This document shows, piece after piece, positions 10,987 through 60,966 of a DNA stretch of 64,000 nt. The notes beneath the pieces are model-generated. The model saw nothing but the letters and a program-made list of their open reading frames with translations, searched no databases and was not told the DNA's origin. The DNA lies in contig JBEULL010000018.1 in the NCBI GenBank assembly GCA_041287365.1, positions 240,908 to 304,907 on the forward strand. The letters are read 5' to 3'. Each line of letters opens with the position of its first letter. Within the stretch, counting starts at the first letter, position 1. This DNA comes from Dissulfuribacterales bacterium. GTDB lineage: Bacteria; Desulfobacterota; Dissulfuribacteria; Dissulfuribacterales; DYLC01. Both the position numbers and the translations under genes were made by a program.

Positions 10987-10993
10987 TTACAGG

Positions 10994-11308: not shown

Positions 11309-11343
11309 TGTGCTCATAAAAAATCATTTAGGTATATAATAAT

Positions 11344-11772: not shown

Positions 11773-11794
11773 TATTTTTGACCTATGATTATAT

Positions 11795-12853: not shown

Positions 12854-12854
12854 T

Positions 12855-13577: not shown

Positions 13578-13612
13578 TCATCATAAAAAACAATCAAAGG
13601 AGGTTTACCAAG

Positions 13613-13882
13613 GTGTCATTACAACCAGAACTCAAAAAGGAACTCATCGAGAAATACAAACGCAGCGACGCGGACACAGGCTCGCCTGAGGTGCAGGTTG
13701 CGCTTTTGACAGCTCGTATCAACAGTCTGAATGAGCACTTCAAGTCCCACAAAAAGGACCATAGCTCCAGAAGAGGTCTGCTCAAGCTGGTCGGACAGAG
13801 AAAGAGTTTGCTGGACTACCTCAGAAACAAGGATATGGACAGATACAGAACCCTTATCTCTGAATTGGGCCTGCGTAAATAA
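13613..13882 (+). CDS. rpsO: 30S ribosomal protein S15
   Basis: 89 aa with [13 protein letters not shown]...HLK..KKDHHSRRGLL-type sequence. GTG start with AGGAGG about 9 nt upstream. Confidence 0.95.
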
Positions 13883-13909
13883 TCTATGCAAATGAATGGA
13901 GTAATGGAA

Positions 13910-15994: not shown

Positions 15995-16025
15995 GATATA
16001 CAACTTGCTGATCCATTTTTCAAAT

Positions 16026-17153: not shown

Positions 17154-17199
17154 CAGGCCTGACGGTGACAGGCTGTTGGTAAAAATGCAATAAAAACAG

Positions 17200-18048: not shown

Positions 18049-18136
18049 TGTGATTCCCCTATAAAAATTGATGGTATCGTAAAAAGTAGAGTATGGCTGC
18101 GGCAAAAACGCCGAATGCAAGGTGCACAAATTAATT

Positions 18137-18164
18137 TTGAATATTGAATGCTGAATGTTGAATT
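18137..18164. repeat. four tandem heptamers TTGAATA / TTGAATG / CTGAATG / TTGAATT
   Basis: Read directly from the sequence in the divergent HDOD / rarA spacer. The last copies form one arm of an 8-bp inverted repeat: AATGTTGA 18154-18161 against TCAACATT 18191-18198. Confidence 0.6.
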
Positions 18165-18325
18165 ATGGTGGATTTGTCACAAGTTAACACTCAACATTAA
18201 AAACTAAACATTGTGAAAGGTAGCAGCCGGCAACTTTTTACGACGCTATCATAATTGCCATTAAATGGATTTATTATAATACAGATAAGCCACTTGAGAA
18301 GCAAGGAGACATAAAAAGTTAGAAT

Positions 18326-43744: not shown

Positions 43745-43759
43745 TTCCTCAACCCATCA

Positions 43760-45106
43760 GTGATGCTCAAAAGCCGGTTCAACCCATCCCAGATACTACT
43801 GTTGGGCTTTACAACCATCATCGGAGTAGGTGCCATTCTTCTTAAATTGCCGATTTCCACTCGACACGGTATCTCAACTGTGGATGCCCTTTTTACTGCA
43901 ACCTCTGCTGTCTGTGTCACTGGACTTATAGTCAAGAACACGCCTGTAGACTTCACTCTGTTTGGCCAGATAGTGATACTGCTGCTCATTCAGATAGGCG
44001 GCCTCGGATACATGACCTCCACCACCCTGATTTTTTTGATGATGGGAAAGAAAATCGACATCAAAGACCGTTTTCTCCTAAAGGAATCCATGAATCTCAT
44101 AAGCATGGAAGGCGTGGTCAAATTCGTAAAGCATGTGCTGACCGTTACCTTAATCATAGAACTTCGTGTACTTCTACTCTCTTTTTGCTTTCTACCCTAC
44201 ATGCCTTGGCGAAAAGCAGTTTATTACGGCCTATTCCATTCCATATCCGCCTTCAACAACGCCGGATTCAGCCTATTTCCCGACAATTTAATGAAATTCA
44301 AAACAAGTATGAGCATAAATCTGATTATCTCGCTGCTCATCATTGCAGGTGGAATAGGCTTTTTAGTGCTATGGGAACTCAAAAACAGATGGAATCTTCG
44401 AGCAAAGGACAGAGAACTGCTCTCCATGCACGCCAAAACCGTTTTGGGCACCACCGGCCTGCTGATTCTCGCCGGCGCTGTGCTGATTCTGCTTTTCGAA
44501 CGCAATAATCCAGACTCCATGGCCGGCCTTTCTCTGCCGTATCAATTTCTTGCCGCATTTTTTGCTTCAATTACGGCGCGAACCGCTGGTTTCAACACAT
44601 TGGACTATGCCTCCCTTACACCGGAGACTCTATTTCTCACCATAGTTCTTATGTTCATAGGCGCCTCTCCTGGTGGCACAGGTGGAGGTGTCAAGACCAC
44701 CACTATTGCCGTGGTGCTGACAAGCATGTTCGCCACCATTCGAGGAGAGGAACAGACAGTACTCTTCAAAAGGGCTGTTCCTTCAAGTGTTATCTCAAAA
44801 TCCATGCTTATAGTGGTACTGGGGGCCATCTTTGTAATCGTTGCATCTATCTTGATTCTGCACTTTGAAAACAGCCGCTACCTTTCCATTCTCTTTGAAG
44901 TGACATCGGCCATAGGCACTGTGGGACTTTCCGTGGGGGATGGAGGTGTGCGCAGCCTTTCGGCCACATTTTCTCCACTTGGAAAAATGATAATCTCATT
45001 TATCATGCTTGCAGGTAGAATCGGACCCTTGACACTTGCATGCGCCTTTTTTGAACAAAAAGGCAAACGATATCGATATCCGAAAGGAAGGATTGCCATA
45101 GGATGA
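43760..45106 (+). CDS. TrkH/KtrB-family potassium transporter membrane subunit
   Basis: Polytopic protein with repeated selectivity-filter-like motifs (TGL, IGGLG, NAGF, TAGF, GGTGGG, GTVGLS). Starts 15 nt after the REC-kinase gene. Confidence 0.85.
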   Translation: MMLKSRFNPSQILLLGFTTIIGVGAILLKLPISTRHGISTVDALFTATSAVCVTGLIVKNTPVDFTLFGQIVILLLIQIGGLGYMTSTTLIFLMMGKKIDIKDRFLLKESMNLISMEGVVKFVKHVLTVTLIIELRVLLLSFCFLPYMPWRKAVYYGLFHSISAFNNAGFSLFPDNLMKFKTSMSINLIISLLIIAGGIGFLVLWELKNRWNLRAKDRELLSMHAKTVLGTTGLLILAGAVLILLFERNNPDSMAGLSLPYQFLAAFFASITARTAGFNTLDYASLTPETLFLTIVLMFIGASPGGTGGGVKTTTIAVVLTSMFATIRGEEQTVLFKRAVPSSVISKSMLIVVLGAIFVIVASILILHFENSRYLSILFEVTSAIGTVGLSVGDGGVRSLSATFSPLGKMIISFIMLAGRIGPLTLACAFFEQKGKRYRYPKGRIAIG

Positions 45107-45771
45107 AAAAACAATACGCAGTCATCGGGTTGGGGCGTTTCGGTTATTCCGTTGCAAAGACCCTGACAGAACTCGGTGAAGACGTGATTGCCATAGACAA
45201 CAACGAGGAGCGAGTGCGAAAGATAGCCGATTTTGTAACCGAATCGGTGGTGATGGACGCCCTGGATGAAAAGGCATTGCGCTCCATCGGTTTACAGAAC
45301 GTGGATGTGGCCGTAGTCAGCATCGGTGAAAATATAGAGGCCAGCATTTTAGTAGTAATGATTCTCAAGGAGATGGGTGTGCAAAACATCATAGCCAAGG
45401 CGGTCACATCCCTGCATGGCAAGGTGCTCGAAAATTTGAACGTAACTCGCATCGTATATCCTGAAAGAGACATGGCCGTGCGTGTAGCACAGCAACTGGC
45501 CAGGCCCACCATTTTGGAACACTTGGAACTTTCTCCTGAATACAGTATCATCGAGATTCCAGCCCCTTCCTTTGTAGCCGGCCGCATGCTGAGAGACACT
45601 GGGCTGCGCAACAAATATGGCATAAACCTCATAGCGATTCGTCGCAGGAAATCAGAGACTGGCCTCACTGAATGGAATGTCAATCCGGCGCCAACAGACA
45701 TCATTCAACCTGAGGACATTCTGGTGGTCATAGGCTCCAATACCGATCTGGAGCGGCTGAACAACGCCTGA
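45103..45771 (+). CDS. TrkA/KtrA-family K+ uptake regulatory subunit (RCK N- and C-domains)
   Basis: Rossmann motif VIGLGRFG followed by a TrkA-C-like C-terminus. ATGA overlap with the membrane subunit gene. Confidence 0.85.
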   Translation: MKKQYAVIGLGRFGYSVAKTLTELGEDVIAIDNNEERVRKIADFVTESVVMDALDEKALRSIGLQNVDVAVVSIGENIEASILVVMILKEMGVQNIIAKAVTSLHGKVLENLNVTRIVYPERDMAVRVAQQLARPTILEHLELSPEYSIIEIPAPSFVAGRMLRDTGLRNKYGINLIAIRRRKSETGLTEWNVNPAPTDIIQPEDILVVIGSNTDLERLNNA

Positions 45772-45806
45772 TTTTCAATGATTTTGAAAGGAACTGTATC
45801 AAAAAT

Positions 45807-48533
45807 ATGTCACTCTCAACTGACTTGACAACAACGGACACACAAACAAATTCCTCTAAACCCACTGCACTCCAAACCGCTCCTATTGATAAATCTTATG
45901 AATTTCAGGAAGTTGAGGCCAAGTGGCTGAATGACTGGGCTCAGGCAGGGCTCTCGATAGCCACCATGGACTCAACCAAACCCTGTTTTTCCATGGTCAT
46001 TCCACCTCCCAACGTCACAGGTGTGCTGCACATCGGGCATGCCCTGAACAACACGCTTCAGGATATCTTGATTCGCTACAAGCGCATGGATGGATATAAT
46101 ACCCTCTGGGTACCAGGGACCGACCATGCAGGTATCGCCACTCAAAACGTCGTAGAACGGCAGCTGGCTCAGGAAGGTCTTTCTCGTCATAAATTGGGTA
46201 GAGAGGCCTTCATTCAGCGGGTCTGGGAATGGAAGGCCAAAAGTGGAGGACGCATTCTCGAACAGCTCAAGCGACTGGGCTGTTCCTGCGACTGGTCACG
46301 CGAGCGCTTCACCTTTGACGAAGGTCTGTCATTAGCCGTAAAAGAGGTCTTTGTGCGGCTCTACGAAGAAGGCCTCATTTATAAAGGAGATTACATAATC
46401 AACTGGTGCCCCCGTTGCCACACGGCCTTGGCGGATATAGAAGTGGAACACGAACCACAGGAAGGCTGCATCTGGCGCCTCAAATACCCTCTCAAGGATG
46501 AGACCGGCTATGTGGTAGTGGCCACCACTCGGCCAGAGACCATGCTGGGAGACACCGCTGTGGCGGTAAATCCCAACGATGCCAGGTATGCTCATCTCAT
46601 CGGTAAAGAGCTGATGCTGCCTCTTGTCAACAGGCCCATTCCCATCATAGCCGACGATACGGTGGACATGGAATTCGGAACAGGTGCCGTGAAGATCACA
46701 CCGGCCCATGACTTCAATGACTTTGAAACAGGACTGCGCCACAATCTGCCTGTGATCAACATCTTTGACACCTCTGCACACGTCAATGAAAACGGCGGCA
46801 AATACCAGGGGATGGACCGCTACGAGGCCAGAAAACGCATTTTGGAAGACATGTCGGCCATTGGTCTGTTGGAAGCAGAGGAAAAACATAGCCTTGCCAT
46901 CGGCGGATGTTACCGCTGCAAGACAGTGGTGGAGCCTCGTATCTCCAAACAGTGGTTCGTGCGCACTCAACCCCTGGCCCAAAAGGCATTGGCGGCAGTA
47001 AGAGAGAAAGAGACGGTCATACTGCCTGCATCCTGGGAAAAGACCTACGAGGAATGGATGACCAACATCAAGGACTGGTGTATCTCCCGTCAGATCTGGT
47101 GGGGGCATCGCATTCCTGCCTGGACATGTAAGACCTGCGGCGAGACCATAGTGGCCAAAGATACTCCAACTGCCTGCACAAAATGCAACTCCACAGACCT
47201 GGAACAGGAGACGGACGTGCTGGACACCTGGTTCAGTTCCGCACTTTGGCCGTTTTCCACTCTGGGATGGCCTGAAAAAACCAGGGAACTGGAAATGTTT
47301 TATCCAACCTCCGTGCTCATCACCAGCTTCGATATCCTCTTTTTTTGGGTGGCACGCATGCTCATGATGGGCATTCATTTCATGGAGGAAGTGCCGTTCA
47401 GGTATGTCTATCTCCATGCCCTGGTAAGAGACAGCCAGGGGCAGAAGATGAGCAAATCCAAAGGCAATGTCATAGACCCCTTGACGGTCATGGAAAAATA
47501 CGGCACAGACGCGGTGCGCATGACCCTTACCGCTCTGGCTGCTCAAGGCAGGGACATCAAGCTGGCGGAGGACCGTATCGAAGGCTACCGCCACTTCATC
47601 AACAAGATATGGAACGCCACTCGTCTGGTACTCATGAATGTAAATGACTCATTTGAACCGTTGAAAGACCCTGAATCATTAATTCCAAGAGCTTTGAAAG
47701 ATAAGTGGATCTTGGCCAGACTCGGCAAACTCATTCAAAGCACACGCCACAATCTGGACAACTTCGAGTTCGACGAGGCTGCGCGAGGATTGTATCACTT
47801 CTTCTGGCACGAATACTGCGATTGGTATCTGGAACTGGCAAAACCCGCATTTCAAAGCCTGAACGACCAGGAGAGAAGGATTACGCAACAGACGGCCATC
47901 ACTGTGCTCGATATCTGTCTCAGACTGCTCCACCCCATTATTCCTTTTGTAACAGAGGAATTATGGCATAACCTACCGGGTTCATCAGGCCACATCATGA
48001 CAGCGGAATTTCCCAGACCTGTGCCTGCCTGGCAAAATGAGACTGCTGAGGCGCAAATGCAGGAGCTCATCGAGATCATCACCGGCATTCGCAACCTGCG
48101 CTCCGAATTCAACATACACCCTGGTATCAGGCTCAAGGTTCAGGTTTTTCCTCATGATGATGGTATCCGTGAGCTGTTTTCCGCACAAAAAACGCATCTG
48201 TTAGCATTAGCTAAACTTGAGACCATAGATTTCTATGATACCTCGCAGCCAAGGCCCAAAAACGCCGCATCCGTGATTCTAAAGGACGTAGAGATATTCA
48301 TTCCCCTGAAGGACGTGATAGATCTGGCTGGCGAATTGAAAAAACTGCAAAAAGAGGAAGAAAAGCTGCTGAATGACCTGCAAAAGACACAGGCCAAGCT
48401 GAACAATGCGGACTTCATGGCCAGGGCGCCTCAGGAGATTAGAGAAAAGGAGCAACAGCGCTTTACTGATATAGAGACCCGTTTGAAACGCATTAAAGAT
48501 CATAAGGCCACATTGAGCACCATCGAGACATGA
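45807..48533 (+). CDS. valS: valine--tRNA ligase
   Basis: HIGH (PPNVTGVLHIGHAL), KMSKS, an editing-domain insert and a C-terminal coiled coil. 908 aa. Confidence 0.95.
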   Translation: MSLSTDLTTTDTQTNSSKPTALQTAPIDKSYEFQEVEAKWLNDWAQAGLSIATMDSTKPCFSMVIPPPNVTGVLHIGHALNNTLQDILIRYKRMDGYNTLWVPGTDHAGIATQNVVERQLAQEGLSRHKLGREAFIQRVWEWKAKSGGRILEQLKRLGCSCDWSRERFTFDEGLSLAVKEVFVRLYEEGLIYKGDYIINWCPRCHTALADIEVEHEPQEGCIWRLKYPLKDETGYVVVATTRPETMLGDTAVAVNPNDARYAHLIGKELMLPLVNRPIPIIADDTVDMEFGTGAVKITPAHDFNDFETGLRHNLPVINIFDTSAHVNENGGKYQGMDRYEARKRILEDMSAIGLLEAEEKHSLAIGGCYRCKTVVEPRISKQWFVRTQPLAQKALAAVREKETVILPASWEKTYEEWMTNIKDWCISRQIWWGHRIPAWTCKTCGETIVAKDTPTACTKCNSTDLEQETDVLDTWFSSALWPFSTLGWPEKTRELEMFYPTSVLITSFDILFFWVARMLMMGIHFMEEVPFRYVYLHALVRDSQGQKMSKSKGNVIDPLTVMEKYGTDAVRMTLTALAAQGRDIKLAEDRIEGYRHFINKIWNATRLVLMNVNDSFEPLKDPESLIPRALKDKWILARLGKLIQSTRHNLDNFEFDEAARGLYHFFWHEYCDWYLELAKPAFQSLNDQERRITQQTAITVLDICLRLLHPIIPFVTEELWHNLPGSSGHIMTAEFPRPVPAWQNETAEAQMQELIEIITGIRNLRSEFNIHPGIRLKVQVFPHDDGIRELFSAQKTHLLALAKLETIDFYDTSQPRPKNAASVILKDVEIFIPLKDVIDLAGELKKLQKEEEKLLNDLQKTQAKLNNADFMARAPQEIREKEQQRFTDIETRLKRIKDHKATLSTIET

Positions 48534-49387
48534 AACCATCCCGTCCACACTCTTCCACTTATAGCCACCTGATTCGGCAGGCGCTGGCTGAAGATATGCC
48601 CTTTGGAGACATCACCACCTCCTGCATTATGGACCCCGATGCACAGGGGAGGGCCGTCATTCTGGCCAAGGAGGACTGTGTGGTGGCAGGGCTGTTCGTG
48701 GCCCAGGAGGTCTTTGCGCATGTGGATGACCGCGTCGTCTGTAATATCATGTTCGATGAGGGGGCAGCGGTTCACACCGGCGAAATACTCATGGAGATTG
48801 AAGGCAGCCTTGCCTCCATTCTCATGGGAGAACGGGTTGCATTGAACCTGATTCAACGGCTCTGCGGCATAGCGACTTTGACTGCGGCCTTCGTAACGGC
48901 GCTGACCGGCACCAACTGCCGTGTGCTGGATACACGCAAAACCACCCCTGGTCTGCGTGTATTGGAAAAATACGCCGTGCGCGTGGGAGGCGGCCACAAT
49001 CACCGTTTCTCCCTGTCCGATGGAATACTCATAAAGGACAACCACATAGCCGCCTGCGGTTCCATTACCGAGGCGGTAAGACGGGTGTATGAAAATGCAC
49101 CGCATACCATAGCCGTTCAATGTGAGGTCTCAAACATCAAGGAGCTGCAAGAGGCCTTGAATGCCGGCGTTAACGCGGTGTTGCTGGACAACATGGACAC
49201 TGATGCATTAAAAAAAGCGGTTGAATTCATAAGAAAGACTGCACCTAATGTGCTAATCGAGGCATCGGGTGGAGTTACCATCAACAATGTCAGGGAGATA
49301 GCCCTTACAGGTGTGGATATGGTCTCAACCGGCAGTATTACACATTCGGTAAAGGCTGTGGATATCAGCCTGCGCATTCTGAGATGA
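48530..49387 (+). CDS. nadC: nicotinate-nucleotide diphosphorylase (carboxylating)
   Basis: QAPRTase-like sequence (ALAEDMPFGDITT, LDTRKTTPGLR, GGGHNHR, DNH, EASGG). Confidence 0.9.
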   Translation: MKPSRPHSSTYSHLIRQALAEDMPFGDITTSCIMDPDAQGRAVILAKEDCVVAGLFVAQEVFAHVDDRVVCNIMFDEGAAVHTGEILMEIEGSLASILMGERVALNLIQRLCGIATLTAAFVTALTGTNCRVLDTRKTTPGLRVLEKYAVRVGGGHNHRFSLSDGILIKDNHIAACGSITEAVRRVYENAPHTIAVQCEVSNIKELQEALNAGVNAVLLDNMDTDALKKAVEFIRKTAPNVLIEASGGVTINNVREIALTGVDMVSTGSITHSVKAVDISLRILR

Positions 49388-50175
49388 CCGTCAAAAAACG
49401 TCTGGATGTACTGGTGGTAGAGCGAGGTATTGCAGACTCTCGAGCAAAGGCGCAGGCCATAATCACGGCTGGTCAAATACAAGTAAACGGCCAAATCCTG
49501 GACAAATGCGGTCAGCAGGTGCCGGAGAATGCAGAGATATGTCTTTTAAGCAATCCATGTCCTTATGTGAGCAGAGGCGGATTGAAACTGGCGCACGCCC
49601 TGTCGTGTTTTCAAATAAATGTCAGGGGAATGGTCTGCATGGATGTGGGCGCATCCACAGGCGGCTTTACGGACTGTCTGCTGCAATACGGGGCAATGCT
49701 GGTGTATGCAGTGGATGTGGGCTACGGCCAACTGGATTGGAAACTCCGAAACGACAGCCGAGTGGTGGTATTGGAAAAACAGAACATCCGTAACATAGAC
49801 CACACATCGATTCCGGAACCCATAGACCTGCTGGTGATGGACGTCTCCTTCATCTCCTTGAAAACGGCTCTGCCACCTGCCCTGCCCTTTCTCAAACCCT
49901 GCGGAGCCGTGATCGCACTGATCAAGCCGCAATTCGAGGCAGGCAGAGAACAGGTGGGAAAGGGAGGTGTGATCAGGGATGCAAAGGTACGGGAGGAAGT
50001 GGTACAGGGGCTTCGGACATTTTTCAGTCAGGAACTGAAGCTGGAGATAGCTGGTCTGGTTGCATCACCCATTCATGGGGCGAAGGGCAACGAAGAGTAT
50101 CTGATCTATATGAAAATTAATGGAGGATACAAGGAGCATGGGAGAACGGAAGTCGAGTTGGAGGGAAATCGATAA
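49384..50175 (+). CDS. tlyA: TlyA-family rRNA (cytidine-2'-O)-methyltransferase
   Basis: S4-like N-terminus (RLDVLVVERGIADSRAKAQAII), YVSRGGLKL, DVGASTGGFTD, LIKPQFEAG. Confidence 0.85.
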   Translation: MTVKKRLDVLVVERGIADSRAKAQAIITAGQIQVNGQILDKCGQQVPENAEICLLSNPCPYVSRGGLKLAHALSCFQINVRGMVCMDVGASTGGFTDCLLQYGAMLVYAVDVGYGQLDWKLRNDSRVVVLEKQNIRNIDHTSIPEPIDLLVMDVSFISLKTALPPALPFLKPCGAVIALIKPQFEAGREQVGKGGVIRDAKVREEVVQGLRTFFSQELKLEIAGLVASPIHGAKGNEEYLIYMKINGGYKEHGRTEVELEGNR

Positions 50176-50608
50176 ACGCAAGAACAAGTCCGGTTCTTCG
50201 AGTAAAGGGATGAAGAGCCGTTTGGAAAAGGCTCTGGAAAATCCTGCCCTGAAGAAATATTACCTTCAGGAGGTGGAAAAGCTCTTCAGCGGTTCAAAGG
50301 ATGCAGAAAAAGAACGCAGCCTGACAGCGCTTCGAGAACTGTACGGCAGCGCTGCCTTTGAGGAGACAGCCTTGAAATATCACGAACTTTACGGCCTGCC
50401 ACAGGATTGGAGCGGGCTTTTGATGTTTCTGGACCTCAAGGACCAATCGGAAATCGTCACCAAGGCCATGGAACTCCTTGTAGGCATGGCAGCCGAGAGA
50501 AATACACTAGAACGCAACAATCTCAAGGCCAAACTCCGATTTCTGGGCATGACCACAGAGGATACCGACATTCGAGACAAGGCCAACGAATACCTCAAGA
50601 CCATGTGA
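50138..50608 (+). CDS. hypothetical protein with a lysine/serine-rich N-terminus
   Basis: The ORF is co-directional and sits tightly between tlyA and xerD. I recognise no motif. The start is ambiguous (50120, 50138 or 50210), and the first two options overlap tlyA. Confidence 0.45.
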   Translation: MGERKSSWREIDKRKNKSGSSSKGMKSRLEKALENPALKKYYLQEVEKLFSGSKDAEKERSLTALRELYGSAAFEETALKYHELYGLPQDWSGLLMFLDLKDQSEIVTKAMELLVGMAAERNTLERNNLKAKLRFLGMTTEDTDIRDKANEYLKTM

Positions 50609-50614
50609 ACTCCC

Positions 50615-51535
50615 ATGGATTCCACAATAAAATCCGATACAAACACTTGGTTCAGACTCATAGACGACTTTATAGCCCATCTTCGCATTGAAAAAGGGCT
50701 TTCCGGCAATACCAGTGAGGCCTACGCCACAGACTTGAACTTCTTTGTAACTTATGTGACGGATATCGGCATTTACGAACCGGCTGAACTCACACTCACA
50801 GCCATCCTCTCTTGGCTCGTCAGGCAAAAGACGCAAGGCATGCACGCCCGCACCATCTCCAGACGTCTCTCCAGTCTGAGGTCATTTTTCAATTTTCTAC
50901 GTCTTGAACGCATAGTCACATCCAATCCAGTCACCACCATTCAAAATCCGAAGATAGGCCTGTATCTACCGGATGTCCTGAGCGTGGAAGAGGTGGAAAG
51001 GCTTCTGAACGCACCGAATACCAATACTCACCTCGGCATGCGTGACAGGGCTATTCTGGAACTCACCTATGCCTGCGGTCTTCGGGCATCCGAGGCCGTA
51101 ACTTTGAAACTCCATCAGATAGACATGAATTTGGCCTACCTACGCGTCATAGGAAAAGGAAACAAGGAGAGGGTCACCCCCATTGGGGATGTGGCCGTTG
51201 AGATATTGAAGGAATATCTACTGAAGGCCAGACCGCAATTTCTAAGGACAGCGGGCAGTGAATTCCTGTTTCCCAGCCGGAACGGACGGCCTCTCACCCG
51301 CCAGCGCTTCTGGCAGATATTAAAGACTCATGCGTTACAGGCAGGGCTGAAGTCTGAGCTATCCCCTCACTCCCTTCGCCACTCCTTTGCCACGCACCTG
51401 CTGGAAGGCGGGGCCGATCTGCGCGTTGTGCAGATGCTTTTGGGCCATTCCAGCATCACCACCACACAGATATACACACATCTCGACCTGCAACACCTGC
51501 GTGAGGTGCACAAGCGATTCCATCCCAGGGCATAG
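50615..51535 (+). CDS. xerD: tyrosine recombinase XerD/XerC family (XerD-like)
   Basis: N-terminal SAM-like domain (FIAHLRIEKGLSGNTSEAYATDL) and catalytic region (RDRAILELTYACGLRASE, HSLRHSFATHLLEGGADLRVVQMLLGHSSITTTQIYTH). Confidence 0.85.
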   Translation: MDSTIKSDTNTWFRLIDDFIAHLRIEKGLSGNTSEAYATDLNFFVTYVTDIGIYEPAELTLTAILSWLVRQKTQGMHARTISRRLSSLRSFFNFLRLERIVTSNPVTTIQNPKIGLYLPDVLSVEEVERLLNAPNTNTHLGMRDRAILELTYACGLRASEAVTLKLHQIDMNLAYLRVIGKGNKERVTPIGDVAVEILKEYLLKARPQFLRTAGSEFLFPSRNGRPLTRQRFWQILKTHALQAGLKSELSPHSLRHSFATHLLEGGADLRVVQMLLGHSSITTTQIYTHLDLQHLREVHKRFHPRA

Positions 51536-52164
51536 AGAAGCCCTCGAAGGGCACAGGACTTCTGTGGTTCGAATGGTTCGGGTTCAATGCAGGCAGCGCA
51601 TTGGCCGCAAACGGGCTGGCTGGAATGGCCTTCTTAAACACCAATACAGCCGCTGCGGCAGCCGCCCTGGCCTGGATGGCTATGGACTGGCTCTTCTATA
51701 AAAAATGCACTGTGCTGGGCATGGCCTCCGGCGCTGTGGCAGGGTTGGTGGGCATCACGCCTGCGGCAGGTTTTGTTGACATAGCCGGAGCCTTTATAAT
51801 CGGCATAGCGGTAGGCGTGATTCCGTTTCTGATAATCGCAAAGATCAAACCACGACTTGGCTATGACGACACACTGGATGCCTTTGGCATACACGGTGTG
51901 GCAGGTTTTATGGGAGCGATACTGACGAGCATTTTGGCTAATCCAGCCATAAACCAGGCAGGTAAGGGTGTAATATACGGAAATGGTAGTCAATTTCTTA
52001 CACAATTTCTTGCAGCAGGCGCGACTTTTGTGTATTCTGGCATAGCAACCCTAGTCATACTGGTAATTATAAAAGCGACCATTGGCATTCGAGTGGAAAA
52101 CGAAGAGGAGATCAAGGGGCTTGACGAGACACAGCACGGCAAAACCGCCTATTTTTTCCTCTAA
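51536..52164 (+). pseudogene. amt: ammonium transporter (Amt) gene remnant: C-terminal half only
   Basis: The reading frame is open from the base after the xerD stop. It reads ...KGTGLLWFEWFGFNAGSALAANG..., which is a mid-protein Amt signature. It continues through DDTLDAFGIHGVAGFMGAIL to a normal Amt C-terminus. About 200 N-terminal residues are absent. The first in-frame start is TTG 51601. Confidence 0.75.
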
Positions 52165-52191
52165 AGTAAAATTACAAAGACATGAGGCATC

Positions 52192-52530
52192 ATGAGAAAG
52201 ATAGAAGCGATTCTAAAACCATCCAGATTCGAGCAGGTAAAGGACGCCCTGAACAAAATAGGCGTAAAGGGCATGACAGTATCGGAAGTAAAGGGCTATG
52301 GCAGACAAAAAGGTCACAAAGAGGTCTATCGCGGCACTGAATATGTAGTTGATTTGATTCCGAAGATCAAGATTGAGATTGTAGCCGAGGCTGCACAGAT
52401 TCCCATGATTATCGATACGATCATCGCAGAGGCCAATACAGGCACCATAGGCGATGGCAAAATATTCGTTATGCCCATAGAAGATGTAATAAGGGTGAGA
52501 ACAAAGGAACGCGGTAAAGAGGCTATATAG
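52192..52530 (+). CDS. glnK: P-II nitrogen regulatory protein (GlnK type, Amt-linked)
   Basis: 112 aa: MRKIEAILKPSRFEQVKDAL...GVKGMTVSEVKGYGRQKGH (T-loop Tyr context)...TGTIGDGKIFV. Confidence 0.9.
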   Translation: MRKIEAILKPSRFEQVKDALNKIGVKGMTVSEVKGYGRQKGHKEVYRGTEYVVDLIPKIKIEIVAEAAQIPMIIDTIIAEANTGTIGDGKIFVMPIEDVIRVRTKERGKEAI

Positions 52531-52561
52531 TGCAATTCGCAACGATAAATTAACATTGATT

Positions 52562-52601
52562 CAATAGCGTATTCATATCAGACATGAATACGCTATTTTT
52601 T
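52562..52601 (+). terminator. intrinsic terminator after glnK
   Basis: 14-bp perfect stem AATAGCGTATTCAT / ATGAATACGCTATT with a 7-nt loop, then a T-run (TTTTTTT). Confidence 0.8.
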
Positions 52602-52624
52602 TGAATTGACAACAGACAGATATT

Positions 52625-54586
52625 ATGAAAAATCTACAACTCAGCACAAGATTCGCACTTATAACAGGTGGAATATGCGGTTTATTCTATCTATTATTCG
52701 TATTGTTGAGCTATAATTATTTAAAAGAACAAACCCTTCGCGTGGGATCAGAAAAGGCACATATCATTCTCGATATCATGAACGGCATCGATGCCTATAT
52801 CAATCAGACTCTAAGGCCAAAAATTATGAACCTGATGCCTGACATACAAGAAAATCCACATGCATTCATTCCGGAGATACTTTCCACCACTAAAATCAAA
52901 AACATAGTACTCGAAAAGGCTAAACTCGAAAATTTTCAATTCACATATAAAAGGATGTCTATAAATCCACGCAACAAGGATAATGGATTAAGTGAATTAT
53001 ATGCCGAAATACTGACAGTATTTCAAAAAAATCGAGAGATGAATGAATGGCAGGGCATAAAATCCATAGATAAACATAGATTTTTTATCCTTGCGAAACC
53101 GATCTATATAAAAGAAAATTGTTTAAGATGTCATGGCGATGCAAATCAAGCGCCTGTCGGACTTATTGCAAAATATGGAAGTGAAGCCGGATTCAGGTTC
53201 AAGACAAATGATTTGATGGGTCTGGAAGCGGTTTCCATTTCCATGGATGTAATATGGAATGAAATCATTCAGACAACCATAAATATCTGTACAATAGGCA
53301 TTATAATAATAGTTCTGTTGTTCATAGCTATTGAAGGTGGTTTTATCAGACTTGTAGGACATCCACTGAAAAAAATAGCCCAACACTTTACTAATATCAG
53401 TCAAAATATGTTGTTAGACACAGCAACCTTAAAAGTAAAGAAACATGATGAAATAGGCGAATTGATACAATCATTCAATCTAATGATAGAAAATCTCAAA
53501 CAAGCCTATGAAAACATCAAATCAAATGCAACAATTTTACAGACTATAATCAATGGAATAAGTGATCCACTTGCACTGATAGGGAAAGATTGCAATATGA
53601 TAGCCGCAAATAACACATATCAGGAATGGATATCCAAAAACAAAAAAATAGTGTTAAATACCATAGAAAAAGAACAACAAAATTGCAATTCAGAAACAAT
53701 AACATGCCAAAAAATCAAAAGACTATTAAACAATAAAGAAGAAATTATTGAAGAGTATAAAACAGAAAATGATGAATATTATTTAATACATTTATATCCA
53801 ATCAAAAACAACCAAAATGAAGTCATAAAAATAGTACATTATATTCAGGATATAACGAAACAAAAAAGATTGGAATTACAGATGGCACATGCTGAAAAAA
53901 TGGCAACAATCGGCCAGATGGCGGCAGGATTTGCTCATGAAATCAACAATCCATTGAGTATAATCCAGTGTTATACAAAATTATTGATCAAGAAATTTCT
54001 AAACGATCAGGAAACAATAAACGATCTCAAAATAATAGAGAAACATATCAATTCATCAAAAAATATAGTGGAAAATCTATTATATTTTTCAAGACACAAA
54101 AAAACAATTTACGAACAAATTAATATAAACAACATTATATTCGAAACCATTTCAATAACTAAAATACAATTCGAAAAGAAAAACATCATTATCACAAAAA
54201 GATTTCAAGAAAATCTTCCGATGATTTACGGCGACCGTGAAAAGCTGAAACAGGTGTTGCTCAACATTCTACTCAACGCGGAACAGGCCATCTCAAGTCA
54301 TGGCGAGATCACCATCACAACCGGTTTCGATGAAAACCGGAACGATGTGTATATCTCAATAAAAGACACTGGCTGCGGCATTTCAGCGCAGCACCTGAAT
54401 CATGTGTTCGAACCATTCTTCACCACAAAGCCACCCGGTGAAGGGACGGGGCTTGGACTTTTCGTGTCCTATGGTATCATTCGCGAACACAAGGGAGATA
54501 TCCTTCTAAAGAGCACAGAAGGTCAAGGGACGGAGATATTCATCACACTACCCGGCCTATTATATGAAAACCAAACTGACGTATGA
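52625..54586 (+). CDS. sensor histidine kinase with a periplasmic CxxCH (DUF3365/Tll0287-like, putative c-type haem) domain, HAMP, PAS, HisKA and HATPase
   Basis: TM1 at residues ~10-30, CLRCH at residues 166-170 (nt 53120-53134) and TM2 at ~215-240. HAMP-like (HDEIGELIQSFNLMIENL). H-box FAHEINNPL. N/G boxes LLLNAEQA, DTGCGI, GTGLGL. Confidence 0.85.
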   Translation: MKNLQLSTRFALITGGICGLFYLLFVLLSYNYLKEQTLRVGSEKAHIILDIMNGIDAYINQTLRPKIMNLMPDIQENPHAFIPEILSTTKIKNIVLEKAKLENFQFTYKRMSINPRNKDNGLSELYAEILTVFQKNREMNEWQGIKSIDKHRFFILAKPIYIKENCLRCHGDANQAPVGLIAKYGSEAGFRFKTNDLMGLEAVSISMDVIWNEIIQTTINICTIGIIIIVLLFIAIEGGFIRLVGHPLKKIAQHFTNISQNMLLDTATLKVKKHDEIGELIQSFNLMIENLKQAYENIKSNATILQTIINGISDPLALIGKDCNMIAANNTYQEWISKNKKIVLNTIEKEQQNCNSETITCQKIKRLLNNKEEIIEEYKTENDEYYLIHLYPIKNNQNEVIKIVHYIQDITKQKRLELQMAHAEKMATIGQMAAGFAHEINNPLSIIQCYTKLLIKKFLNDQETINDLKIIEKHINSSKNIVENLLYFSRHKKTIYEQININNIIFETISITKIQFEKKNIIITKRFQENLPMIYGDREKLKQVLLNILLNAEQAISSHGEITITTGFDENRNDVYISIKDTGCGISAQHLNHVFEPFFTTKPPGEGTGLGLFVSYGIIREHKGDILLKSTEGQGTEIFITLPGLLYENQTDV

Positions 54587-56007
54587 AACCAGAGCCAGTT
54601 ACTCCGCAAAAACTATTGATAATTGACGACGAACCGGACCTGTTGCTGGGTCTGAAGCGTCTGTTGCAGCCTTATTTCAGGCAGGTTCAGGTAATGACAG
54701 CCGAATCGCCTCACACCGCATTGGAACTCATTAAAAATGAGACCGTGAATGTAGTACTGAGCGATATTCGTATGCCAGGCATGGATGGAATGGCCCTGCT
54801 TCAAATGCTGAAGAAGAACGCAGCTCCTCCTACCGTAGTGCTCATGACCGCCTATGGCACCATAGATCTGGCCATCGATGCCTTAAAGCAGGGTGCCTAT
54901 GACTTTCTCACCAAACCATTGGACGAAGACAGGCTTGTTCACACTCTGCAAAAGGCCCTGGAGCGCCAGCAACTGCTGGAAAAGACCTCGCTTCTGGAAA
55001 AAGAGTTGCATCAAAGAAAAGGACTTGCCGATACATTCATCGGCACCAGCCCTGCCCTCAAGAAGGCTATAGATACCATCGCCCTTGCCGCCGGAACCGA
55101 TGTCCCTGTGCTCATAACCGGCGAAAGCGGCACAGGAAAAGAACTGGCTGCAAAGGCCCTGCATTCATGGAGTAACCGCAGCGCCCACGAATTTGTTGCC
55201 ATCAACTGCGCCGCCATGCCCGCAGAACTCCTGGAAAGCGAGCTCTTCGGTCACAAAAAAGGGGCATTCACTCATGCCATAGCCGATAAAAAGGGGCTTT
55301 TCGAACTTGCCGATAAGGGTACCCTCTTTCTCGATGAAATAGGAGATATGCCCCTTACGCTTCAAGCCAAACTACTGCGTGTGCTGCAAGAGGGAGAGAT
55401 TCGTCCCATTGGAGACAACCACACCAGAAAGGTGGATGTTCGAGTTATAGCTGCTACAAATAAACCCATCAAAACCATGTTGGAACGAGAGGAATTCCGG
55501 CAGGACCTCTTCTTCAGGCTCAATGTCATCGAGATACAGATGCCTCCATTGCGAGAGATGCGGGAAGACATTCCCATCCTGGCGCAACACTTTTTGCAAC
55601 AATTTTTGAAGGAAACCGGCATGCCTCCCAAAACCTTTTCAAGAGAGGCCCTGATTCAGCTTTCCACCTGGCATTGGCCTGGAAATGTCAGGGAACTTCA
55701 AAACTTGGTGAAACGGGCTGCCATTTTCAGCTCAGGTGACACGATTCTACCGGAAGACCTGCAGATTCCAGCCAAACGCGGCTGTGCCGGCGGAGACTTA
55801 AACGGCCTGGTGAACATGCAGTATCATGAGGCCAAAGAAACGGTCATGCGTACCTTCACAACGCAGTATCTCACTCAAATACTGAGGTCCACCAACTGCA
55901 ACATCACACTGGCCGCCAAGCGCTGCGGCCTCGAACGCCAGTCCCTGCAACAGCTCATTCGACGCTATGGAATCAGTGTGGACGAAATAAAAAACACTGC
56001 AAACTAA
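54583..56007 (+). CDS. sigma-54-dependent response regulator (NtrC family: REC, AAA+ and Fis-type HTH)
   Basis: REC (LLIIDDEPD...SDIRMPGMDG). AAA+ with GESGTGKE, the GAFTHA (GAFTGA-like) loop, and ELFGH. C-terminal HTH. ATGA-type 4-nt overlap with the kinase. Confidence 0.9.
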   Translation: MKPEPVTPQKLLIIDDEPDLLLGLKRLLQPYFRQVQVMTAESPHTALELIKNETVNVVLSDIRMPGMDGMALLQMLKKNAAPPTVVLMTAYGTIDLAIDALKQGAYDFLTKPLDEDRLVHTLQKALERQQLLEKTSLLEKELHQRKGLADTFIGTSPALKKAIDTIALAAGTDVPVLITGESGTGKELAAKALHSWSNRSAHEFVAINCAAMPAELLESELFGHKKGAFTHAIADKKGLFELADKGTLFLDEIGDMPLTLQAKLLRVLQEGEIRPIGDNHTRKVDVRVIAATNKPIKTMLEREEFRQDLFFRLNVIEIQMPPLREMREDIPILAQHFLQQFLKETGMPPKTFSREALIQLSTWHWPGNVRELQNLVKRAAIFSSGDTILPEDLQIPAKRGCAGGDLNGLVNMQYHEAKETVMRTFTTQYLTQILRSTNCNITLAAKRCGLERQSLQQLIRRYGISVDEIKNTAN

Positions 56008-56161
56008 ATCTTGCACTGCAAATAAAAAAATACAGCAATACCCCTGTTACAGCACCCTAACCTTTGAGATCTGACTGGAAATCAAGCGGATTTCATGGGG
56101 TTTTCAAGGCATTTCACACAATTTTCCATCATATTCCATATAATTTTCCAATTTTAGTTCA

Positions 56162-56177
56162 AGGCACAACTGTTGCA
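56162..56177 (+). promoter_or_regulatory. sigma-54 (-24/-12) promoter
   Basis: AGGCACaactgTTGCA matches TGGCAC-N5-TTGCA at all positions except the first T. GG is at 56163-4 and GC at 56175-6. It lies about 173 nt upstream of the 56350 ATG and directly downstream of a sigma-54 activator gene. Confidence 0.6.
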
Positions 56178-56240
56178 ATTTGAAGCCATGCAGCGACATC
56201 TTGCGGCCTGTTTTCATTTCTATTGCAAAGGAGGGCGACC

Positions 56241-56249
56241 ATGGCATAA
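56241..56249 (+). promoter_or_regulatory. minimal leader ORF (ATG GCA TAA) behind a strong SD
   Basis: AAGGAGGG (56228-56235), 5 nt, then ATG-GCA-TAA. It lies within the predicted sigma-54 transcript leader. Confidence 0.3.
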
Positions 56250-56349
56250 GATTTCACTTCATTCCGGCGTTTTTTAAATAAATTTGACAAGATTTTTTTA
56301 CAAAACCATCACCTTTCATTATCGACACAACTGCACAGAGGAGGTTTCC

Positions 56350-58101
56350 ATGGCAGAAATCGAAGAAAAAAAGGGATTGATCAGTGAAGATTGGCTGTCC
56401 TTGATTCTGGGCCTCATCGTCTTTGTCCTCTCACTTGGAGTCTTTCAGAACATGGACATTCTTGGCTGGGGCGTCACAACAAAGATGTGGACGAATCCAG
56501 GAAAAATAAACGGTGTGGTCTCCAAGGTCTATCAGCCGCTCAAGGGTGAAATAACCAAGATAGACGGCAAGACCCTGGTCATCAAAAAATCCGATGGCAA
56601 GGAGGAAAAGGTAACGGTAGAAGACGTATCCCGCTATAAAGTGGGGGACAAGTATGAAAAAGACGGTATCTCCGGCAATACCGCCCTGTTTCTCACCTTT
56701 TTGGCCATGCTGGTCTTGATGGGCTTTGGCGCCCTGCTCTTGGGTGCAAACCTGTCTCGCTTTCTCATAGGCTTTACAGCAGTCTTCTGGATCAGCTATC
56801 TATGTTGGGTTTTGGGGCACTGGGCCTACATAGCAGCCACCAAGGCGGATCTCGCCAAGTTCAATATTCCATGGTCACTCAGCATGACCGGTGAGTTCGG
56901 CTTCATCATCGCCCTGGTTGCAGGCCTCATCATCGGCAATTTCGTGCCAAAATTGGCCGACTTTATGAAAGAGGCCGCGCGTCCAGAACTCTACATCAAG
57001 ACAGCCATCGTCATTATGGGCGCTACACTTGGACTCAAAGCCGCTCAATCCTTCGGTCTGGCCACCAACATCATGTTTCGCGGGCTTTGCGCCATAGTGG
57101 AGGCATATCTCATCTACTGGGCATTCACCTACTGGGTGGCCAGAAAATACTTCAAATTCAGCCGTGAATGGTCGGCGCCACTGGCCTCGGGCATCTCCAT
57201 CTGCGGAGTCTCGGCTGCCATAGCCACAGGCGGAGCCATTCGAGCCAGGCCTGTGGTACCCATCATGGTCTCTTCCCTGGTGGTTATCTTCGTGGCCATT
57301 GAAATGATCATCCTGCCGTTTATCGCTCAGGTCTTTCTTTGGAAAGAACCATTGGTGGCAGGCGCATGGATGGGTCTGGCAGTGAAATCCGACGGTGGTG
57401 CCATTGCAAGCGGCGCCATCGCAGACTCATTGATTCGTGCCAAGGCCATGGATATGACGGGCATCAACTATGCAGAGGGATGGATCACCATGACCGCAAC
57501 CACGGTCAAGATGTTCATCGACATCTTCATAGGCGTGTGGGCCTTTGTACTGGCCATCATCTGGTGCACCAAGATCGATTGCAAACCAGGCCAGAAGACC
57601 AGCGCCATTGAGATATGGAACCGCTTTCCCAAGTTCGTTATAGGCTATGTACTCACATTCTTCATTCTGCTCTTTATATGTTGGCCGGCAGCCAAGACAG
57701 TAGGTCCTACCACTGACCAGATGAACAAACTGAAGGTGGAGATACAGAGCATCGAAAAACAGGTGAGCGGCGCGGCGGCGGAGAACAAGGCAGCCCTTGA
57801 GGCCAAACTGACCGATGCCAAGGCCAAGATAAAAGATATGGAGGCCAGCATCAAGGAACCCAAAAAACTCCTTGATACAGCCAGGCTTTCCACAGAGGAA
57901 GGAGATACCTTCAGAAAGCTCTTCTTCCTGCTCTGCTTCTTCACCATCGGCCTGGTATCCAACTTCAAGAAGCTCATGGAGGAAGGCATCGGTAAACTGG
58001 CAGCTGTCTACGCCGTGTGCCTGTTCGGATTCATAATCTGGATCGCCCTGCTGATCTCCTGGCTCTTTTTCCACGGAGTGAAGCCGCCGGTAATAACCTG
58101 A
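56350..58101 (+). CDS. polytopic membrane protein, YeiH/UPF0324-like (putative sulfate-exporter family) with extra N-terminal soluble insert and C-terminal coiled-coil insert
   Basis: Many TM helices and an SGISICGVSAAIATGGA motif like the UPF0324 ICG-SA signature. Start at ATG 56350 (GGAGG 6 nt upstream), not TTG 56284. The family call is from memory of the motif only. Confidence 0.6.
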   Translation: MAEIEEKKGLISEDWLSLILGLIVFVLSLGVFQNMDILGWGVTTKMWTNPGKINGVVSKVYQPLKGEITKIDGKTLVIKKSDGKEEKVTVEDVSRYKVGDKYEKDGISGNTALFLTFLAMLVLMGFGALLLGANLSRFLIGFTAVFWISYLCWVLGHWAYIAATKADLAKFNIPWSLSMTGEFGFIIALVAGLIIGNFVPKLADFMKEAARPELYIKTAIVIMGATLGLKAAQSFGLATNIMFRGLCAIVEAYLIYWAFTYWVARKYFKFSREWSAPLASGISICGVSAAIATGGAIRARPVVPIMVSSLVVIFVAIEMIILPFIAQVFLWKEPLVAGAWMGLAVKSDGGAIASGAIADSLIRAKAMDMTGINYAEGWITMTATTVKMFIDIFIGVWAFVLAIIWCTKIDCKPGQKTSAIEIWNRFPKFVIGYVLTFFILLFICWPAAKTVGPTTDQMNKLKVEIQSIEKQVSGAAAENKAALEAKLTDAKAKIKDMEASIKEPKKLLDTARLSTEEGDTFRKLFFLLCFFTIGLVSNFKKLMEEGIGKLAAVYAVCLFGFIIWIALLISWLFFHGVKPPVIT

Positions 58102-58146
58102 TTCACACTTCTAACGTTTCAGGGCAGCCGACTGGTATTCTGGAAT

Positions 58147-58167
58147 GGGCAGGCACATGGCCTGCCC
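58147..58167 (+). other. GC-rich intercistronic stem-loop (no T-run)
   Basis: GGGCAGGC / GCCTGCCC, an 8-bp perfect stem with loop ACATG, lying between the membrane-protein gene and the microprotein ORF. Confidence 0.4.
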
Positions 58168-58225
58168 CTACATAAGATGATATGTGTTAACCTCACACAA
58201 AAATTCTCTTGAAAGGAGTAGCTAT

Positions 58226-58387
58226 ATGGCAGAGGATACCAAACTTGTAGAAGAGATAAAAAAGATGGAATATGAGCCGTTACTTCCAGCGGAAATTCAG
58301 CTCATCCGTTGGAGCATAGGCATAGGCGCAGGTGGGCTGCTGTTTCTCTACTGGCTGTCCCAGGTCCTGTTTCCAGGCGGGCATTGA
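58226..58387 (+). CDS. 53-aa single-TM microprotein
   Basis: MAEDTKLVEEIKKMEYEPLLPAEIQLIRWSIGIGAGGLLFLYWLSQVLFPGGH. GGAG lies ~9 nt upstream of ATG 58226. It is followed by a terminator. Confidence 0.5.
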   Translation: MAEDTKLVEEIKKMEYEPLLPAEIQLIRWSIGIGAGGLLFLYWLSQVLFPGGH

Positions 58388-58456
58388 ACAAAGATCATCG
58401 AAGGCATGATGTTAAAATACATCGCGACGTGATTGAAAATACATCATCGCAATAAG

Positions 58457-58482
58457 AAAGGCGGCTCTCAAGCCGCCTTTTT
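58457..58482. terminator. bidirectional intrinsic terminator between convergent genes
   Basis: AAAGGCGGCT / AGCCGCCTTT, a 10-bp perfect stem with loop CTCA. It is T-rich on the plus side and TTTCTTATT on the minus side. Confidence 0.7.
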
Positions 58483-58506
58483 ACGATTCACTACATTTTA
58501 TATTTA

Positions 58507-60966
58507 TTACCTCACACCTTTTTCCGCCAGAAACGGCCCGTATTTTTTGTCTGTAATGCAGATATGGTTCTGCAGCCAGTTCTTGAGAAAATTCAGCAGC
58601 TCCAAATCCACTGTGGCGTAACCTTTCTCGAACTTCTCCTTGAAGGCAAGCACCTTTTGCACCAGGTCTGCGTGAATGGCCTTGTGGGCATCGGTGTCTG
58701 GATAGCCGTGCTTGTCGAAATAATCCTCTTCAGTCTTGAAATGAAAGACCGTGTATTCCGCCAGTTCATTCAAGACCTTGGCTGCGGCATCCTTTCCTAT
58801 GCCTTGCTTTATACCGGCATAAATGGTGTTCACCATGGCCACCAGCTTCTTGTGCTGTTCGTCTATGGAAGGAATGCCCACACTCAAATTCGGACTCCAC
58901 GGCATGAATTCAGCGGATTGTGAAGGGTTATGTAACTGCCTCTCCGCCTGCGGCTGTGCTGAAGATGTGCGCCTTCTTGAGGTGGGTTCGGCCTTCATAC
59001 CCTGTAATGCATGACCTCCTGCGCCTTCACTGCCATTTTTTGGGTCTTCAAGAATAGTCAACAATGAATGTAACAAAGAGATAGTCTGCTGGAAAAATGG
59101 GTCTATCTGGTTTTTGAAATAATCCAACATACGATCCCGTTCACCCGCCGCGATCATGCGCTGCAACTCCACAACATTGCGATGCATGGAGTCATGCACG
59201 GGCTGCAATTTCAATATTACATCCGCTATGCGAGAAGATGCAGGCTTATAACCGTCCAGAAAACGTCCAAGGCCACAGCGATGAGGATCGGTCTCCACCT
59301 CAAAGGGCACAAACTCGATCACGCCTGCAATTACCTTATCCCTCCACTGCATGTGCTGGTAAATAACGGCCTTTATACGGGCGCTGTCCGCCAGGCTTGC
59401 AAGCAATGAGGAAAGCAGACTCGGCTCCACTTTGATCTGAGACATCAACACAGCGGTCTCTGCTACAACGCTTTCCATACCATAGGCATTGGCCTCTATC
59501 TCCCTGCGCATTCTCGAGAAACGAGAGGCCTGTTCCAAAAGCACCTCAGAGTCCTTCATCACACTTCTGGCGCCTTCAGCGGCCCTTTCGATATTGTGTG
59601 TGATTTCAGAGACAGTGGCGGTCTGTTCCTCCGTAGCGCTGGCAATGGTGCTAGCCAGGTCATTCACCTCGCTTACAGCCTGTGTAATACGCTCCACTGA
59701 ATCCACTGCGTGCTGAGTATCGGCTTGTATCGTGGTGATCATACGGGTGATCTCCTCCGTGGCCCCTGCCGTCTGCTTGGCCAGTTCCTTCACCTCATTG
59801 GCCACTACCGCAAAACCCTTGCCTGCCTCACCTGCACGAGCGGCCTCGATGGTGGCATTCAGGGCCAAAAGATTGGTCTGAGATGCTATGTTGTTGATAA
59901 CTCGAATGATATCACCGATCTTTTCTGAACTTGTGGACAGGCTCTGAATAGCCGACTGCGCCTCGGCGGTCTGAGTCTGGGCGTCGTTGGCCTTCTGCGC
60001 TGTAATTGCCACGCTGTGCGCTATCTCATTGGTGGCGGTGGACATATCCTTGGTGGCCTGAGCGATGGTCTCGAGGTTGCTGGAGGAGGTCTGGGCCGAC
60101 TGCTTCACCTTATGAGAGACGGCCAGGATCTCATCCGCATATTGAATAAGCCGGTCTTTATTTTTATTGAGAATAGAGGCCACGCTCTCCACCACTGCAT
60201 TTTGGGCATTCATGGTGTTGAACTGTCCGATCATGGTGGAGGAAAGGGCGTTACACGCAGATGCAAGACGCTGCACCTCCGAAGGCCCTTCTACGGGCAG
60301 ACAGGTCTGAAACCTACCCTGACCTGCCTCCTGAATGGCGATCACTACCCTTTCCAGAGAGGCGATCATGAAACGCCTTACAAAAAAGGTGACCAAAATA
60401 ATGAAACATATACCACCTGCAAGAGTGACATACTGAAAATATTGGGCGTATCGGTCTTTTTGAAGAGAAGATGCCTCAAATGCCTTGGTCACTGCATCCG
60501 CCTGCTTAAAAAGGGTACCGTTGGTCTCGTTCATGGCTGAAACTGCCTTTTTTACATCTTCCGCATTTGGCTTTTCATTTAGAACAACAGCGATATGGGC
60601 TGAAAACGGCTTCCACAGCCCTTCCAGTTTATTGAGCTCGGAAAACAATGCCTCATCAGTCACAGCAGATAACCCCAGTTCTGAACTGCCGTTTTTGAGC
60701 CCTTGTAACGATTTTTCAAAGAGCTGCGAGGCATTCTTCAGTTCGTTCAGGTGTGAGGCATCGCCTGTTACCATGTAGGCATTGGCGGCCTTGGTCATCT
60801 TTTGAGAGAGCATGCGCTCACGGCCAGCTATGTTTATGGCTATGGTATCCGAGCCATGTAGATAAATGAGAAAAAAATTGAGGGAAACGGTGACAATAGT
60901 GGCCACAAACATGATGGCCACCAGGGCCGGGACCAGAAATGAAATAGAGTAAAAACGCCTGAGCAT
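58507..60966 (-). CDS. methyl-accepting chemotaxis protein with N-terminal PilJ/NarX-type sensor, HAMP, MA domain, CZB-like module and C-terminal hemerythrin domain
   Basis: [16 protein letters not shown] (nitrate/PilJ-type P-box), MA hairpin region ([37 protein letters not shown]). CZB-like H..W...[11 protein letters not shown]...HDSMH at nt 59053-59382. Hemerythrin-type ligand residues ([15 protein letters not shown]...H, WL.NHI..D) at nt 58510-58911. Confidence 0.9.

Follow-up and report, generated by a model that had tools for sequence, protein, structure and literature searches.

The whole stretch of DNA that was analysed, hereafter the window, is 64,000 nt long, and the genes and other elements listed in this paragraph are read on its + strand. 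An intact xerD gene (50615–51535, stop codon TAG at 51533–51535) is followed by 13 nt of its own 3′ flank (51536–51548), by the C-terminal part of an ammonium transporter gene, amt (51549–52164), by an intact glnK gene for a P-II protein (52192–52530) and by a strong intrinsic terminator (52563–52597). Genes for a histidine kinase and a sigma54-dependent response regulator (52625–56007) come next. As set out below, the amt remnant is probably a young pseudogene left by a deletion.

Relatives of the locus came from two routes. A genome scan with XerD gave L008 (Deltaproteobacteria bacterium STE_37) and L009 (uncultured Desulfobulbaceae), whose XerD proteins are 85–87% identical to that of the window, and L054 (Logan SRR25994133), which proved to be the closest relative, and L055 were reached through the 90% protein cluster of the amt remnant. 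A metagenome scan with XerD gave no further relative with informative downstream sequence; two contigs, L029 and L030, stop with xerD or shortly after it. A literature search on the Dissulfuribacterales organism and on the xerD-amt-glnK locus returned nothing specific.

The recombinase that adjoins the junction is a housekeeping XerD, a tyrosine recombinase with Pfam Phage_integrase and SAM_1 matches. Its score of 362 with the NCBIfam equivalog model for XerD (TIGR02225, recomb_XerD) exceeds the cut-off of 329.6, and its score of 318 with the XerC model TIGR02224 falls short of the cut-off of 335.15. The order valS-nadC-tlyA-hyp162-xerD is identical in L054, L008, L009, L029 and L030. The hypothetical 162-aa protein encoded in this string has no Pfam or NCBIfam match, and its gene shares 56 nt (50120–50175) with the 3′ end of tlyA, an overlap kept in L054, L008 and L009.

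The reading frame that opens at 51535 runs from EKPSKGTGLLWFEWFGFNAGSA... to ...HGKTAYFFL* (stop codon 52162–52164) and remains open over 209 codons, without stops or frameshifts. Its part from 51549 onwards starts with the last base of amt codon 229 and runs through codons 230–433 to the stop codon, corresponding to TM6–TM11. The earlier note, made from the letters of this DNA, had recognized here an Amt protein that lacks its N-terminal half, and this proved correct: Pfam PF00909 (Ammonium_transp) is matched at positions 196–399 of 399 and not over its full length (E=1.4e-61), and the TIGR00836 score of 225.9 is below the cut-off of 343.3, compared with 480.6 for the orthologue in L054. The remnant aligns with residues 203–404 of Escherichia coli AmtB and residues 193–390 of A. 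fulgidus Amt-1, and retains the second pore-histidine context, FGIHGVAGFMG, as well as the S219 region. In the published structures of AmtB, the twin pore histidines are H168 (TM5) and H318 (TM10), and the periplasmic recruitment site is formed by F107, W148 and S219. Because the AmtB alignment begins at residue 203, H168, F107 and W148 have no counterpart in the remnant, and given these residue roles the lost part held the first pore histidine and the periplasmic NH4+ site. The N-terminal half is indeed missing, as had been claimed: tblastn of the 64-kb window with full-length Amt and with the porin-like protein of the relatives (see below) found neither an amt N-terminal half nor a copy of the porin-like gene.

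Candidate in-frame starts of the remnant are CTG 51562 (used in GenBank), TTG 51601 and ATG 51625 (used in Logan gene calls). No convincing SD sequence was found at any of the three, in agreement with the earlier note, although the TTG which that note took for the first in-frame start is preceded by the CTG. A sigma70-like promoter site was sought between xerD and glnK, and none was found there. In GenBank, the CTG-start product of 200 aa is MEZ0329192.1, ‘hypothetical protein ABWK15_06495 [Dissulfuribacterales bacterium]’, which matches the same junction sequence, and the exact 179-aa product is called as a gene on the Logan contigs of the three sequencing runs named below. Both the GenBank entry and the 179-aa gene calls should be relabelled as an amt pseudogene.

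The glnK gene starts 27 nt after the amt remnant, has a GAGG SD sequence and encodes the T-loop tyrosine Tyr51 in GYGRQKGHKEVYRGTEY. Both this gene and its terminator had been described as intact, and they are: the P-II family PF00543 is matched over positions 1–102 of 102 (E=1.8e-31), and a 14-bp stem followed by TTTTTGAATT lies at 52563–52597. Its score with the NCBIfam equivalog models is 138.8, below the cut-off of 202, so the choice of GlnK over GlnB rests on gene context. The dN/dS of glnK relative to L054 is 0.022, which indicates strong constraint.

The histidine kinase (Tll0287-like/HAMP/PAS) and the sigma54-dependent response regulator are kept downstream of glnK in all relatives. 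The kinase gene (52625–54586) has a GC content of 0.34, locally 0.28, against ∼0.50 in its neighbours. Its orthologues in L054, L008 and L009 have a GC content of 0.34–0.35 at 83–93% nucleotide identity; since the low value is common to all three relatives, it is ancestral, not the result of a recent import, and unrelated to the deletion. We considered whether the junction marks the left edge of a compositionally odd segment, as had been proposed, or of a horizontally acquired low-GC block, and rejected this: GC content remains at about 0.5 through the remnant (0.51–0.54), the low GC content is confined to the kinase gene, and that gene is equally poor in GC in all four genomes.

In L054, L008 and L009 the genes follow in the order xerD, a porin-like gene, full-length amt, glnK, histidine kinase and sigma54 response regulator. 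The porin-like gene, gcw, encodes 262–284 aa with a weak Gcw_chp match, and a fourth intact gcw-amt pair is found in L055. The amt orthologues of these four relatives are 433–435 aa long. Those of L054, L008 and L009 match PF00909 over positions 1–399, whereas only codons 230–433 remain at the syntenic position in the window. By blastn, nucleotides 2–8950 of L054 align with 42600–51548 of the window (89.8% identity) and nucleotides 10687–19012 with 51549–59872 (93.5% identity). At the junction the relatives have extra DNA of 1736 nt (L054), 1744 nt (L009) and 4782 nt (L008). The synteny comparison that the earlier note had proposed thus shows both flanks in collinear order and unchanged orientation in three relatives, with the missing DNA between the two flanks, and the sharp deletion junction postulated there is borne out.

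The junction lies between 51548 and 51549, where nucleotides 8951–10686 of L054 (1736 nt) are absent. The break is not exactly at the xerD stop codon, as had been supposed, but 13 nt beyond it, and on the right the retained sequence begins with the third base of amt codon 229. The deleted DNA comprises nearly all of the xerD-gcw intergenic region, the gcw gene for a porin-like protein of 262 aa, and amt codons 1–228 with two bases of codon 229. The 13 nt that survive from the native xerD 3′ flank are AGAAGCCCTCGAA, where L054 has AGGAGCCCTCGAA, and the left blastn segment ends with them at 51548. Together with the last base of the TAG they form a 14-nt stretch, GAGAAGCCCTCGAA (51535–51548), which matches the native 3′ end of xerD in L054, GAGGAGCCCTCGAA. 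Microhomology at the breakpoint is 0 nt and no filler was found; within 40 nt of both breakpoints there are no shared 7-mers, direct or inverted, and no leftover element. Comparison with the ∼83%-identical relatives had suggested a CATAA microhomology between xerD ...GGGCATAA and amt ...CCCCATAA, but both this microhomology and a reading of the 14 nt as diverged amt sequence were ruled out by the native match in L054 and the 0 nt of homology.

A short palindrome had been reported on the junction, and GCCCTCGAAGGGC is present at 51540–51552. Its 5-bp stem is made by the join itself, which brings GCCCTCGAA of the xerD flank next to GGGC of amt. As a terminator or a recombination site the palindrome was rejected, because it lies outside the predicted minimum-energy fold of the region (z=−1.78; 10 of 200 shuffles fold as well) and has no T-run on the + strand.

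In the spacer between xerD and gcw, L054, L008 and L009 share an invariant motif TGGCAT-N5-TTGA, which precedes the gcw start by ∼57 nt (regions 9100–9180, 12100–12180 and 9080–9160, respectively), and AT-rich palindromes of the TTACAAAAATGTAA type lie upstream of it in the same spacer in all three. Neither the motif nor palindromes of this type occur anywhere in the whole window. By their sequence, these elements are a candidate sigma54 promoter with activator sites, whose −12 element is non-consensus (TTGA, not TTGC), and the sigma54 regulator encoded downstream plausibly serves it. In L008, the spacer region also contains ∼3.2 kb of extra DNA (8921–12100) between xerD and the porin-like gene, which is absent from the window; it holds three to four copies of a repeat of ∼450–500 nt with long internal inverted repeats, and a VapBC-like pair (PIN toxin at 10167–10595). 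The xerD-gcw spacer appears to be a hot spot for insertions.

To what extent the remnant has departed from an Amt protein was surveyed at the 92 alignment columns in which at least 95% of 119 homologues agree (118–119 per site). Three changes unique to the window fall at sites conserved in at least 99% of homologues, compared with none in each of L054, L008 and L009. A Gly to Glu change (GAA, 51571–51573) turns WFGWFGFN into WFEWFGFN at a position that is Gly in 99% of homologues and in all four intact close relatives; a Gly to Ser change (AGC, 51928–51930) turns LTG into LTS, where 99% of homologues have Gly; and a Glu to Lys change (AAA, 52141–52143) turns the C-terminal HGE.AY into HGKTAY, where all 118 homologues have Glu. 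Hence two characteristic Amt motifs, WFGWFGFNAGS in TM6 and HGE.AY, now read WFEWFGFNAGS and HGKTAY; L054, L008 and L009 retain the two motifs unchanged. The excess of apparently damaging substitutions (three against zero, zero and zero) is suggestive, the numbers being small. The dN/dS of the retained part is 0.082 relative to L054 and 0.08–0.10 relative to L008 and L009, the same level as between the intact orthologues of L008 and L009 (0.084). With L008 and L009 as outgroups, seven non-synonymous and 10 synonymous changes fall on the window branch and three and seven on the L054 branch, a difference that is not significant. Polymorphism in the remnant among four near-identical assemblies is zero. 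Since dN/dS is as low in the remnant as in intact orthologues, selection statistics by themselves do not tell a pseudogene of very recent origin from a fragment that is still constrained; most of the divergence would have built up while amt was still intact, which points to a recent deletion. From the truncation and the substitutions we infer a non-functional, young pseudogene.

We consider it about 90% probable that a single recent deletion of ∼1.74 kb in this Dissulfuribacterales-like lineage left an amt pseudogene beside an intact glnK. In this event, the xerD flank, cut 13 nt past the stop codon, was joined to amt at the last base of codon 229, with loss of the spacer that holds the sigma54-like promoter and the palindromes, of gcw (262 aa) and of the N-terminal 228 codons of amt (TM1–5). 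The frame of the remnant would still be open only because the deletion is too young for stops or frameshifts to have arisen. The glnK gene remains intact, and its nitrogen-regulated promoter is presumably gone; as no promoter-like site was found between xerD and glnK, transcription of glnK probably depends on read-through from the valS...xerD string alone. Because the join is blunt, with neither repeats nor microhomology, illegitimate recombination or end-joining is the probable mechanism, and not Xer or a mobile element. The comparison establishes the deletion with its exact ends and content, and three read sets contain it; loss of function and of the promoter, expression of glnK by read-through and the mode of breakage are deduced from this.

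Other explanations would require either that the join is not real or that it arose in another way. A chimeric join of unrelated contig ends, made in assembly or binning, could be suspected because the source is apparently a MAG and an abrupt junction is typical of chimeras. However, the same junction was recovered in three separately assembled runs (SRR29446201, SRR29446202 and SRR29446203; Logan), whose contigs match the window over 17–19 kb without gaps at 99.95–99.97% identity and differ from it by 5–8 SNPs each, a different set in each contig and none of them in the remnant. The exact XerD and GlnK proteins were found on contigs of all three runs. Moreover, in the relatives the two joined sides lie next to each other at a distance of only 1.7 kb, and there is no shared k-mer at the join, which a de Bruijn graph assembler would presumably need, so an artefact is extremely unlikely. 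A rearrangement by Xer or a mobile element, with the 5′ half of amt surviving elsewhere, was suggested by the position of the junction 13 nt from a tyrosine-recombinase gene, the link that the earlier note had drawn, and would be in keeping with an insertion-prone spacer, given the ∼3.2 kb of repeats and the VapBC-like pair gained by L008. That link did not hold: the adjacent gene is a housekeeping xerD in an order conserved across the relatives, and the junction has neither direct or inverted repeats of at least 7 nt at its breakpoints, nor recombination-site-like sequence, microhomology or a leftover element, so the adjacency looks coincidental. The flanks have kept their colinearity and orientation, and the window contains neither the amt N-terminal half nor gcw; as it covers 64 kb of the genome, a relocated copy of the lost segment or a second amt may lie outside it. 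When the N-terminal 216 aa of Amt were searched against 5.8 billion proteins, no N-terminal-half fragment exceeded 78% identity apart from the protein of L008 itself. This negative is biased and of little weight, since only proteins of up to ∼380 aa were listed and another search of this kind missed the window's own 179-aa product. We therefore regard such a rearrangement as very improbable.

One further alternative accepts the deletion and differs on its product. The TM6–TM11 half, which consists of the second structural repeat with TM11 and the cytoplasmic tail, might be translated from CTG 51562, TTG 51601 or ATG 51625 as a genuine half-size Amt, for example as a membrane dock for GlnK or as a dual-topology half-channel. 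The open frame, the low historical dN/dS and the intact, constrained glnK downstream agree with this, as does a 216-aa C-terminal-half ORF with a GGAGG SD sequence and a near-identical start in L052, a MAG of the unrelated Brevinematia. If such a protein were made, half-size Amt proteins would, given L052, be a recurrent and overlooked class. However, the short ORF, whose conservation in related genomes would by the earlier note have refuted a truncation, is not conserved: the four closest relatives carry the long gene. None of the starts has a good SD sequence, the promoter is apparently deleted, three residues conserved in at least 99% of homologues have changed, the HGE motif among them, and evolution before the deletion accounts for the low dN/dS. 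The ORF of L052 itself has Asp at the 99%-conserved Gly of LTG, a sign of decay and not of a new class of proteins, so that it too seems to be a remnant on its way to being lost. A stand-alone half that docks GlnK or pairs with itself is thus hardly to be expected, and the explanation as a whole seems highly unlikely to us.

Partial amt genes away from contig ends, as in the window, were met in two other places. In L052 (JBMFQU010000001, 3704–4651), the 216-aa ORF follows an AT-rich spacer of 300 nt, without an N-terminal half; its start lies within ∼12 residues of the window breakpoint, and a BBP2 porin gene occupies the place where glnK would be expected. In L053 (3508–7079 of a 767-kb contig), amt ORFs of 117 and 281 aa are followed by glnK, an intact amt gene for 447 aa and glnA, so that a split amt precedes glnK in the same order as in the window. 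Unlike the window, L053 shows an in-place split, a frameshift or nonsense change that may be a sequencing error, and has another, intact amt close by, and L052 has a strong SD sequence; neither shares the window junction. These two cases show partial amt genes to be recurrent in MAGs.

The recent deletion, which we regard as the best explanation, is of an ordinary kind. An amtB-glnK pair consists of an Amt/MEP/Rh channel and its P-II regulator, and the pairing, as amtB-glnK or glnK-amtB, is conserved and well established in bacteria and archaea. The window retains the order amt then glnK, the short spacer of 27 nt and a complete P-II protein with the T-loop tyrosine, and the canonical pair is present in L054, L008 and L009. 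In contrast to such a pair, amt in the window has lost its first 228 codons and its presumed promoter, which leaves an orphan glnK and a stub. These features are those of deletion-derived truncated pseudogenes: an internal deletion specific to one lineage, loss of start and (probably) promoter, changes at otherwise invariant residues, and automatic annotation as a short ‘hypothetical protein’ (MEZ0329192.1). Nothing essential sets the locus apart from other pseudogenes of this kind; what is unusual is the uninterrupted frame and the blunt break without microhomology. The neighbouring xerD, the palindrome on the junction and the low GC content of the kinase gene are incidental.

For the lineage, the event means loss of this copy of amt, of its companion porin-like gene and of the operon's putative nitrogen-regulated promoter, so that the adjacent kinase and sigma54 regulator have lost a probable neighbouring target and glnK is left as an orphan. 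The loss predicts that the genome has a second amt at another locus, or that the organism lives with enough ammonium to do without active uptake. The locus offers a clean and well-dated example of a blunt deletion without microhomology and matters little beyond this genome; its practical use lies in the correction of annotation and in inferences on the nitrogen physiology of this lineage. Divergence along the compared region is uneven, synonymous divergence between the window and L054 ranging from 0.50 in valS to 0.145 in the response regulator, which may reflect rate heterogeneity or past recombination.
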